Below are positions 7,602 to 11,229 of a stretch of DNA of 44,040 nt, in pieces. Location of the stretch: NCBI GenBank assembly GCA_023266475.1, contig JAHFQA010000004.1, forward strand, positions 1 to 44,040, given 5' to 3'. A program made the position numbers and the translations under genes. This stretch comes from Candidatus Woesearchaeota archaeon (GTDB taxonomy: Archaea; Nanobdellota; Nanobdellia; Woesearchaeales; GW2011-AR4). Below the pieces are notes generated by a model that had not been told where the DNA came from, did not search any database, and saw only the letters and a program-made list of their open reading frames with translations. Position 1 is the first letter of the stretch; each line of letters opens with the position of its first letter.

Positions 7602-9071
7602 TCAGCCCTTGATATTTCCCAGAGGGAAAAGAGAAACAACAGGCAATGATATTCCAGCTTGTGCCAACGTGTCCACAACTTCATTAATATTCTTATACGC
7701 AAACCCTGCCTCTTCTGCTAATCCCGGCATTGATGTTGCTTTTACATAAATTCCCCTCTTTTCCATATCTTTTTGCAATTCCTCACCCCTAACTTTATGC
7801 TTTGCAGCAGCCCTTGACATTGTTCTTCCGCTTCCATGAGCTGTGCTTCCAAAAGTTTCATCCATTGCTTTTTGAGTTCCTACAAGCAAAAAGCTTCCGG
7901 TTTCCATTGAGCCACCTATAATGACAGGCTGTCCGGTGTCCTTATATAAATTTGCAAGCTCAGGATGATTCGGAGGAAAAGCCCTTGTGCTTCCTTTTCT
8001 GTGCACAATTAATTTTTTCTTTTTTCCGTCAACTATATGCTCTTCAAGTTTTGCAATGTTGTGCGCTACATCGTAGACCATGTGCATATCCAGTTTCTCC
8101 GCTTCTGTTTTGAACACTTTTGAAAATCCCTCCCGTATCCTGTGCAAAATCACTTGCCTGTTTGTGAATGCCATGTTTGCAGCGCAAGCCATAGCCTTGT
8201 AATAGTCCTGGCCTTCATTGCTCTGAAATGGCGCACATGCAAGTTCCCTGTCATAAACTTCAATTTTGTACTTTTTCATAGCACCTTCAAATATTCTCAA
8301 ATAATCAGTTCCAATCTGATGCCCAAATCCTCTTGAGCCGCAATGCACCATAATAACAACCTGCTCCGGCATATTTATTCCAAATTTTTCCGCAATTTTT
8401 CCATCAAAAATATTTTCTGCCCTCGCTACCTGAATTTCTAAATAATGGTTCCCAGATCCAAGAGTCCCTAATTGATTAATTCCTCTTTCCAGCGCTTTTG
8501 AGCTCACTTTTTCTGCATCAGCCCATTCTATTCTTCCATGGCCTTCTGTCCTTTCCATGTCTTCTTTCCATCCATAATTATTTTCTACACACCATTTTGA
8601 GCCATTCTCTATTATTTCTCTGAACTGATTTTTATTTGCACTAACAAATCCTCTTGCTCCAACACCAGAAGGGACTGTTTTGAACATAGTGTCGACTAGT
8701 TCTTTTAATTTTGGCTGGACTTCCTTGAAAGTTAAATTTGTAGTAACCAATCTCATTCCGCAATTTATGTCAAAGCCGATTCCTCCCGGAGAGATTACGC
8801 CTGTTTCCGAATCAAAAGCTGCTACTCCTCCAATTGGAAAACCGTAGCCCCAGTGCCCATCCGGCATACAGAATGAATACTTTTGGATTCCCGGCAGGCA
8901 TGCAACGTTAGTAACTTGGTTGAAAACTCCTGCATCCATATCGTCAAAAAGTTTTTTTGTCGCATAAATTCTTGCAGGAACTAACATACCTTTTTTGTAA
9001 GATGGTGGTATCTCCCAAACAACATCACTAATTTGCTTTACGTCTTTTGGTTTTTCAAAATTCTGTTCCAT
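7602..9071 (-). CDS. rtcB: RtcB RNA 3'-phosphate/5'-OH ligase (tRNA-splicing ligase)
   Basis: 'MPDGHWGYGFPIGG', 'GFDINCG', 'GSGNHYLE', 'VHCGSRG', 'HRKGSTRA', 'STAHGSGR'; no intein. Confidence 0.97.
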   Translation of the reverse strand: MEQNFEKPKDVKQISDVVWEIPPSYKKGMLVPARIYATKKLFDDMDAGVFNQVTNVACLPGIQKYSFCMPDGHWGYGFPIGGVAAFDSETGVISPGGIGFDINCGMRLVTTNLTFKEVQPKLKELVDTMFKTVPSGVGARGFVSANKNQFREIIENGSKWCVENNYGWKEDMERTEGHGRIEWADAEKVSSKALERGINQLGTLGSGNHYLEIQVARAENIFDGKIAEKFGINMPEQVVIMVHCGSRGFGHQIGTDYLRIFEGAMKKYKIEVYDRELACAPFQSNEGQDYYKAMACAANMAFTNRQVILHRIREGFSKVFKTEAEKLDMHMVYDVAHNIAKLEEHIVDGKKKKLIVHRKGSTRAFPPNHPELANLYKDTGQPVIIGGSMETGSFLLVGTQKAMDETFGSTAHGSGRTMSRAAAKHKVRGEELQKDMEKRGIYVKATSMPGLAEEAGFAYKNINEVVDTLAQAGISLPVVSLFPLGNIKG

Positions 9072-10468: not shown

Positions 10469-10888
10469 ATGCAAGTAAAAGACCTAAAGCCAAGGCAAGG
10501 CAATGTTGACATTATTGTTGATGTAGTTGATGTAGGCGAAGCCAGGGAATTCCAGAAGTTTGGAAAGCCAGGCAGAGTTTCAAATGCAATTGCTAAGGAC
10601 GAAACAGGCGACATAAAGCTTACATTATGGAATGAAGATATTGAAAGAGTTCATTCCGGCGACAAAGTTCATTTGACAAACGGATACGTCAACGAATGGC
10701 AAGGGGAGATGCAGCTTACAACAGGAAGGATGGGCAAATTGGAAATTGTGGGTAAAGCAGATGCCGAGTTGAATAAAGGGCCAGATTCTACAATAAGAAC
10801 CAATATTCCGACAGAAAAAAGCGATGACGAAGAAATTAATGTTGAAGAAGAAGATGTAGAAGATGCCAATGATGATGAAGAGATTTAA
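10469..10888 (+). CDS. ssb: Single-stranded DNA-binding protein (single OB fold, archaeal SSB/RPA type) with acidic tail
   Basis: 'KDETGDIKLTLWNE', 'NGYVNEWQGEMQLTTGRMG', D/E-rich C-terminus. Confidence 0.9.
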   Translation: MQVKDLKPRQGNVDIIVDVVDVGEAREFQKFGKPGRVSNAIAKDETGDIKLTLWNEDIERVHSGDKVHLTNGYVNEWQGEMQLTTGRMGKLEIVGKADAELNKGPDSTIRTNIPTEKSDDEEINVEEEDVEDANDDEEI

Positions 10889-10959: not shown

Positions 10960-10974
10960 GAAAGTATTTTAAAT
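10960..10974 (+). promoter_or_regulatory. BRE/TATA promoter of the tRNA-Phe gene
   Basis: gaaagtaTTTTAAAT about 25 nt upstream of GG at 10997-10998 (predicted start). Confidence 0.6.
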
Positions 10975-11011
10975 TATTATCTTGTTCTTGATTTTTGGTT
11001 GGGCAGCTTAT

Positions 11012-11220
11012 GGGGATTCTATAAGCATTGTTTATAGGACCAGAACGGTAGCTCAGCCTGAGAAGGAAGCTAAAAGTCTTCGGCTATGGAGAGCACACAA
11101 CTTTTGATGTTGGCTTAAACGGCTGAAGACCGTGGTGAAAGGTTCACGTTTAGTGTACTTCCACAATCATGGATTCAAAACAACCTTAAAAAAGGTTTGC
11201 TGAAAGTTCCATCCGCCCCA
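11012..11220 (+). tRNA. tRNA-Phe(GAA) interrupted by five BHB-type introns
   Basis: Exons 11012-11015, 11046-11060, 11088-11096, 11119-11137, 11167-11179, 11207-11220 join to a 74-nt cloverleaf GGGGCGG TA GCTC AGCCTGGGA GAGC A CACGG CT GAA GA CCGTG GTGTC ATGGA TTCAAAT TCCAT CCGCCCC A with all four stems fully Watson-Crick paired; introns of 30, 27, 22, 29 and 27 nt each fold into a bulge-helix-bulge-like junction; CCA not encoded; T7 tract follows. Confidence 0.9.
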
Positions 11221-11229
11221 TTTTTTTAA

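Follow-up and report, generated by a model that had tools for sequence, protein, structure and literature searches.

The tRNA-Phe(GAA) gene of a Woesearchaeota-like archaeon contains five bulge-helix-bulge (BHB) introns, and the first of these, located between nucleotides 4 and 5 of the tRNA, is preceded by a 5' leader that pairs with the second exon. The pairing is conserved in all identified homologs with the 4/5 intron and strictly co-occurs with the intron, and the processing enzymes are present in the genome. Taken together, the sequences make it very likely that the leader assists in the splicing of the 4/5 intron. In the reading that we prefer, and to which we assign a probability of about 0.75, the leader completes the outer helix of intron 1 and tethers the exon of only four nucleotides, and splicing would then precede cleavage by RNase P. 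The gene is located in a stretch of 44,040 nucleotides from a Candidatus Woesearchaeota archaeon, here called the window, and the host lineage is, judging by its relatives, a small Woesearchaeota-like DPANN archaeon from groundwater.

The gene covers positions 11012-11220 of the window, and this and all other features of the locus described below are located on the forward strand (+) unless otherwise stated. Exon 1 (11012..11015) consists of GGGG, nucleotides 1-4 of the tRNA, and is followed by intron 1 (11016..11045), which is 30 nt long and located at position 4/5. Exon 2 (11046..11060) provides nucleotides 5-18 and contains the guide target GCTCAGCC, and intron 2 (11061..11087) interrupts the D-loop with a central helix formed by AGCC (11055-58) and GGCT (11082-85). 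The 3' part of the D-loop, the 3' strand of the D-stem and nucleotides 26-27 are contained in exon 3 (11088..11096), which is separated by intron 3 (11097..11118, position 27/28; central helix GAGC 11091-94 with GCTT 11113-16) from exon 4 (11119..11137), which holds the anticodon arm with the loop CTGAAGA and the anticodon GAA. Intron 4 (11138..11166) is located at position 46/47 with a central helix of GTGG (11132-35) and CCAC (11161-64), and it is followed by exon 5 (11167..11179, nucleotides 47-59) and by intron 5 (11180..11206) in the T-loop at position 59/60, where the central helix pairs TTCA (11174-77) with TGAA (11201-04) and the T-stem serves as the outer helix. Exon 6 (11207..11220) comprises nucleotides 60-73 with no encoded CCA, and the run of seven T residues immediately downstream (11221..11227) is likely the transcription terminator. 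The six exons are arranged collinearly over 209 nt and have one promoter, which rules out a split, trans-spliced tRNA.

Joining the six exons in silico resulted in a 74-nt perfect cloverleaf that ARAGORN identified as tRNA-Phe(GAA). The unspliced gene was invisible both to ARAGORN and to Rfam, including a whole-genome Rfam scan, and was only seen once spliced in silico. The same five-intron model was recovered independently, from the raw window as well as from the whole genome, by a BHB-aware cloverleaf search that used the BHB register and generic cloverleaf rules as its only input knowledge. All five introns share one register on both sides, with a central strand of 4 nt, 2 nt, the cut and 1 nt. 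The number of pairs in the central helix is three in intron 1 and four in each of introns 2-5, while the inner helix contains at least six pairs in intron 1 and five, four, three and none in introns 2, 3, 4 and 5, respectively. The adjacent outer helix contains two, three, zero, zero and five pairs in introns 1 to 5. Introns 3 and 4 thus have no outer helix between exons, and the anticodon stem and the T-stem presumably stand in as the flanking helix. Intron 1 has two 3-nt bulges in the register of the other four introns, and its removal restores a canonical tRNA with all stems perfect according to ARAGORN. An outer helix between exon 1 and exon 2 is absent, and a helix between the leader and exon 2 is found instead. 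The T-stem (11169-11173 / 11208-11212) closes with A53-U61, as it also does in the orthologues, where the usual and nearly universal closing pair of T-stems is G53-C61.

The guide in the leader, GGTTGGGC (10997..11004), is located at the predicted 5' end of the transcript and forms the 5' strand of a long outer helix. It is antiparallel to GCTCAGCC (11051-11058), which corresponds to tRNA nucleotides 10-17 in the 5' strand of the D-stem and the D-loop, and all eight positions are paired, six of them by Watson-Crick pairs and two by G-U pairs. An A/A mismatch (11005/11050) follows, after which GCT (11006-11008) in the leader spacer AGCTTAT (11005..11011) pairs with GGT (11047-11049). The last part of the spacer contributes A11010 and T11011 to the central helix of intron 1, in which these two nucleotides and G1 and G2 (11010-13) are placed against CCAG (11040-43) in three pairs plus A/G. 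The two bulges consist of G3-G4-A (11014-16) and A-A-C5 (11044-46), and the inner helix contains 8 bp (11017-24 with 11032-39). With its four nucleotides placed in the central helix and the bulge, exon 1 is too short to provide the exon side of the splicing motif, and the leader contributes the complete outer helix of intron 1 and two of the four nucleotides in its central strand. The motif is irregular in that the central helix contains the A/G apposition and an unpaired T or a mismatch is located beside the 3' bulge.

The segment 10997-11060 has a minimum free energy (MFE) of -25.6 kcal/mol (z -3.7), a stability that was reached by 1 of 200 shuffled sequences. Both leader helices are part of this MFE structure, and also of the MFE and centroid structures of the 227-nt precursor. 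The MFE structure has G3G4:CC as its register, and the probability of the BHB central helix of intron 1 is only P=0.10. A match of at least 8 bp with exon 2 was observed in 2.6% of 40,000 random 30-nt windows from this genome (p about 0.026), and the pairing in the single sequence is therefore only suggestive, while its weight rests on the orthologues.

A preliminary description of this DNA had put forward the 8-bp pairing, its extension beyond the A-A mismatch and the supply of the outer helix and part of the central helix of the 4/5 intron by the leader, and the sequence bears it out on these points. It had also assigned AGCC to the central helix of intron 2, GAGC in the 3' strand of the D-stem to intron 3 and GTGG to intron 4, for each of which four central pairs are observed, while the fifth intron (11180-11206) was absent from its text. 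The AGCC at 11055-58 is required both by the leader helix and by the central helix of intron 2, and it would follow from the sequence that the mutually exclusive motifs of introns 1 and 2 are resolved one after the other. The description had further suggested that GCTTAT in the leader (11006-11011) alternatively pairs with ATAAGC (11021-11026) in intron 1. This pairing can form in the window, but GCTTAT is present in only two of the 17 aligned orthologues, and we consider the hairpin to be incidental.

An archaeal promoter is predicted at 10960..10974, with a BRE-like GAAAGTA and the TATA box TTTTAAAT at 10967-10974. It is part of a block of about 30 nt (10960-10991, AAAG..TTTTAAATTATTATCTTGTTCT) that is 90-97% identical upstream of the tRNA-Phe genes in many genomes of the genus. 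The block is better conserved than the introns, and a second copy is found elsewhere in some of the genomes. Directly upstream (10469-10888, +) lies a gene for an OB-fold protein that resembles SSB and ends in an acidic tail, and a similar acidic gene end precedes tRNA-Phe in several relatives. The distance from the TATA hexamer to the start of the guide is 29 nt in the window and 29-31 nt in 13 of the 18 intron-bearing genes, and the distance to G1 is 30-34 nt in 17 of the 18 intron-less genes. Archaeal TATA boxes are centred near -26/-27, which together with this geometry places the predicted transcription start at about 10997. Transcription is thus predicted from the sequence to begin at the first base of the guide, and hardly any leader is to be expected in the intron-less genes.

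We collected homologous loci by a DNA search of relatives, by spliced alignment of the mature tRNA and by an exon pattern applied to 43 genomes of the genus. An order-level pattern, in which GGGGA, a gap and the D-arm were fixed while the leader was left free, was applied to 401 genomes of the order. It yielded 16 matches, of which 12 represent true 4/5 introns of tRNA-Phe, including the one in the window, while L091, L092, L094 and L102 are not 4/5 introns of tRNA-Phe and were dropped. Altogether, the 4/5 intron was identified in 18 genomes from nine families of one Woesearchaeota-like order, eight of which belong to the same genus as the window and ten of which are found elsewhere. The longest helix between leader and exon 2 is 7-10 bp in all 18 intron-bearing genes, always placed on GCTCAGCC(TG) and ending 4-7 nt before G1. 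In the 18 tRNA-Phe genes without the 4/5 intron, the longest match of the leader is a chance match of 4-6 bp at scattered places. Leader complementarity is thus present in all 17 further genomes with the intron and in none of the 18 intron-less genes. Orthologues that have the 4/5 intron but show no such complementarity, which the preliminary description had named as a refutation, were not encountered. A close relative (G006), in which introns 2-4 are 91% identical to those in the window, lacks both intron 1 and the guide. The comparison of the sequences with those of relatives thus strongly supports the interpretation of the leader as a guide.

The exons are retained in the orthologues of 35 other genomes while the introns vary. 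Within the genus, the set of tRNA-Phe introns differs between species and includes positions of about 13/14, 18/19, 20/21, 27/28, 37/38, 46/47 and 59/60, with two to five introns per gene in the genus (relatives L002-L019, L021-L089). After the five introns in the window, the next-highest number in the fetched orthologues is four (G025). These differences between species point to fast gain and loss of introns. In L021, L026, L029, L031 and others, a tRNA gene starting with GGGCCGGTAGCTC is preceded, at a distance of some tens of nucleotides, by the end of another tRNA gene with an intron in the T-loop, which suggests that neighbouring tRNA genes in many relatives are arranged in tandem and are possibly co-transcribed.

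The pattern of substitutions in the leader was analysed in an alignment of 17 intron-bearing sequences; G252, an unpublished genome counted among the 18 carriers, was left out of the alignment. The leader helix was predicted de novo by RNAalifold from these 17 sequences, and 99.3% of its cells are paired in the specified structure (n=17). Seven distinct guide 8-mers are present among the 17 sequences, and the variation is concentrated in three leader columns, where the pairs alternate between U-G and C-G (13/4), A-U and G-U (11/6), and C-G and U-G (12/5). Changes were observed in 15 of 51 cells in these three transition-tolerant columns and in 1 of 85 cells in the five intolerant columns, a difference with a Fisher p-value of about 1e-6 in which the kinship of the genes is uncorrected. 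In the guide, the commonest letter accounts for a share of 0.88, compared to 0.43 in the upstream flank and 0.51 in the spacer, which varies in sequence among the orthologues and is 4-7 nt long before G1. The preliminary description had looked to covariation between leader and exon 2, and the substitutions do preserve pairing, with the covariation being one-sided because the partner in the exon is the invariant D-arm. Most variants in the D-loop would be tolerable through G-U wobble without compensation. The inner helix of intron 1 shows compensatory double changes at five of its eight pairs, with 94.9% of the cells paired (n=17). In the central helix, the outermost pair (columns 26/61) is standard in eight of the 17 sequences, while the other three pairs are standard in all 17. 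In many orthologues, a single unpaired T offsets the proximal outer helix, or the helix contains mismatches.

The order of processing was modelled with partition functions. In the primary transcript, the leader helix has a probability of P=0.73, the acceptor stem of about 0.03 or less and the central helix of intron 1 of P=0.10. Once the leader is removed, G1-G4 are bound to the 3' end with P=0.99, and intron 1 is left without its central helix (P=0.00). With intron 1 removed in silico, the leader helix is lost (P=0.00) and the acceptor stem forms with a probability of about 1.0. When the folds were constrained to the BHB motif, the leader helix was kept in all 17 sequences, at about 0-3 kcal/mol from the free MFE in 16 of them, and removal of the leader cost 9-20 kcal/mol. 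The model thus makes it plausible that intron 1 leaves before RNase P cleavage, as the preliminary description had proposed. The central helix of intron 2 has P=0.00 in every modelled state, and the model is therefore silent on the timing of intron 2.

The genome encodes one EndA protein of the alpha type (200 aa, PF02778 and PF01974, G000:C34:963-1565). No paralogue was found by tblastn searches down to E=50 in this 88%-complete assembly, and 33 genomes of the genus had an EndA match over the cut-off, which was a single strong one in 32 of them. The protein aligns collinearly with the alpha4 enzyme of M. jannaschii without insertions and is a candidate homotetramer. The gene for the RtcB ligase (7602-9071, -; an ORF of 489 aa with 570 bits to PF01139) is located in the window, 2 kb from the five-intron tRNA gene, and the genome contains the RNase P RNA. 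All three enzymes required by the proposed pathway are represented.

Based on these results, we propose that the first 8 nt of a leader of about 15 nt pair with tRNA nucleotides 10-17 and three more with nucleotides 6-8, and that this pairing would set both splice sites in 3-nt bulges, with a register as in introns 2-5. After the cuts by EndA, the leader helix would keep the leader-GGGG fragment on the tRNA body, where RtcB could join it to exon 2. The joining would allow the 7-bp acceptor stem to form and the leader to be displaced, whereupon RNase P would trim the leader. Since the acceptor stem would form only after the joining of the exons, intron 1 would be removed before 5' maturation. 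Exon tethering for ligation may be an equally good role for the leader as cleavage. If this reading is correct, the gene shows that an intron almost at the 5' end of a tRNA can be tolerated when the leader provides the missing helix on the exon side.

A more far-reaching version, in which the leader is an obligatory and co-evolving cis guide and a one-way conformational switch that hard-wires the order from splicing to 5' end formation to the next intron, is one that we regard as tentative and somewhat doubtful. According to this version, the guide at the start of the transcript would capture the 5' half of the D-arm, present the 4/5 intron to EndA and tether the 4-nt exon, and the acceptor stem, formed upon ligation, would then eject the guide, license RNase P and free AGCC for the intron in the D-loop. 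An order in which the ends are processed first is known for tRNAs in archaea and eukaryotes, and the order in this gene would be the reverse, if the switch operates as outlined. By extension, introns in the first or last few nucleotides of archaeal tRNAs would need a guide in the leader or trailer, and searches for such guides could reveal many tRNA genes that are still hidden in DPANN genomes.

A more modest alternative is that the leader helix is only a tether or folding chaperone, which keeps the leader-GGGG fragment of 19 nt in place for RtcB or blocks premature pairing of G1-G4 with the 3' end, and that EndA cuts intron 1 without the leader by use of a relaxed motif or the 3' strand of the acceptor. 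We consider this unlikely as a full account, even though several observations agree with it. No outer helix between exons exists for introns 3 and 4, and their splicing would imply that EndA tolerates flanking helices from elsewhere and that the leader may not be strictly needed for cleavage; the 3' acceptor strand might act as flanking helix for intron 1 in the same manner. The leaderless model, with G1-G4 bound to C69-C72 (P=0.99) and no central helix left in intron 1, and the irregular proximal outer helix in many orthologues are also consistent with a tether. However, a tether is compatible with the preferred reading and predicts the same pattern of conservation. Furthermore, EndA of the alpha4 type is regarded as needing strict BHB motifs in the accessible text of Kaneta 2018 (PMC5829648), and the presence of a single alpha-type EndA thus favours a role in cleavage as well. 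The accessible text of the same study also describes DPANN alpha4 EndA proteins with an extra loop that accompany disrupted tRNA genes (Kaneta 2018, PMC5829648).

It is considerably less probable that the conserved block in the leader acts at the DNA level, as an initiator or factor-binding site, or that it is a neutral remnant inherited with the intron, in both cases with no pairing in the RNA. The location of the block exactly at the predicted transcription start would suit such an element, and the carriers all share one homologous intron, so that common descent explains part of the co-occurrence; the p-value for the single sequence is, as noted above, only 0.026. However, the 8-mer is kept across nine families in which its flanks are scrambled, and it changes almost only where pairing, including G-U, survives (15/51 versus 1/85). 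Seventeen intron-less genes use the same promoter with no such block, and the block and the intron were lost together in the close relative G006. It is hardly credible that the gene is an artefact of the assembly or a pseudogene in decay and its pairing incidental, since its invisibility to ARAGORN and Rfam and the A53-U61 pair in place of G53-C61 are set against a perfect cloverleaf after splicing, the lack of any other tRNA-Phe among the genes found in the 88%-complete assembly, exons kept in 35 other genomes while the introns vary, an A53-U61 pair common to the orthologues and the presence of the stretch in DNA runs from several samples. With no second tRNA-Phe found in these 1.32 Mb, the five-intron gene should be functional.

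About 45 tRNAs are expected. The BHB-aware finder identified 17 tRNAs in this genome (G000), and the fetched loci yielded 55 different mature sequences. Among these, a credible intron within nucleotides 1-8 was only found in tRNA-Phe, although this does not imply that guides are unique to tRNA-Phe, as the finder misses many tRNAs. Putative introns that the finder placed at positions 66-74 arose from alternative 3' anchors and are artefacts. The Rfam tRNA model gave 18 matches over the cut-off in this genome, and ARAGORN made 25 calls, several of which are doubtful. One of the calls, a tRNA-Phe with a 66-nt intron (G000:C30:400-620, -), is a mis-call of a tRNA-like gene with a long variable arm and several insertions. 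Many tRNA genes of this genome are thus still hidden. Genes of the type described here are part of the reason why standard tools miss about half of the tRNAs in DPANN genomes like this one, and a guide complementary to the D-arm at the transcription start provides a signature by which they can be searched for.

The construction of a BHB motif from the flank of a precursor has similarities to several known systems. In archaeal rRNA precursors, the processing stems of leader and trailer form a BHB motif that is cut by EndA. The accessible part of PMC5829648 mentions the BHB processing of archaeal rRNA, and the 5' leader and 3' trailer of permuted tRNA genes likewise pair into a BHB motif cut by EndA, according to the accessible parts of three articles (PMC4090602, PMC3218864, PMC3728597). 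The permuted tRNA genes of Cyanidioschyzon merolae and Thermofilum pendens and the archaeal rRNA stems resemble the gene studied here in that a precursor flank builds the BHB motif. However, the leader in those systems pairs with the trailer and the flank is excised, whereas the leader here completes the motif of an intron inside the gene and is itself not the part that is excised. In split and tri-split tRNAs, flanking non-tRNA sequences pair into a BHB motif that is cut by EndA and hold the pieces for ligation, as described in the accessible parts of two articles (PMC4090602, PMC4033280). The split tRNA genes of Nanoarchaeum equitans and Caldivirga maquilingensis are similar in both these respects, the building of the motif by flank pairing and the holding of the pieces. 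They differ in that two flanks of separate transcripts pair in trans, whereas this is one contiguous gene, the leader of which pairs in cis with nucleotides 10-17 in the D-stem and D-loop of the mature tRNA and is later trimmed off at the usual RNase P site.

The Thermoproteales and ARMAN also have short introns of the BHB type at many positions, with rapid gain and loss, and their motifs are relaxed (HBh', hBH, BHL). The EndA enzymes of these archaea are of the (alpha-beta)2 or epsilon2 type with extra loops, whereas the genome studied here has a single alpha-type gene without such insertions relative to M. jannaschii. No involvement of the leader is described for tRNA introns in the Thermoproteales or ARMAN in the accessible parts of the literature. 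The number of introns also differs, in that this gene has five, whereas the accessible parts of reviews of archaeal tRNAs give a maximum of three introns per gene (PMC4033280, PMC4390854). A helix formed in cis between leader and exon for a 5'-proximal tRNA intron was not described in the accessible parts of the literature, and surveys of intron positions or supplements could hold a precedent. Provided that they do not, flanks that pair with each other into a BHB motif represent the known part, and a leader that is paired in cis with bases of the mature tRNA represents the new part.

The order of events can be compared with that in Methanopyrus kandleri, where the same enzymes, RNase P, EndA and ligase, are at work. 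RNA-seq data from this archaeon showed that the tRNA ends are trimmed before the introns are removed, according to the accessible text of PMC3695527, whereas the leader guide would imply the opposite order for intron 1. The three enzymes of the organism itself allow a test of the prediction that, for this tRNA, splicing precedes the cut by RNase P.
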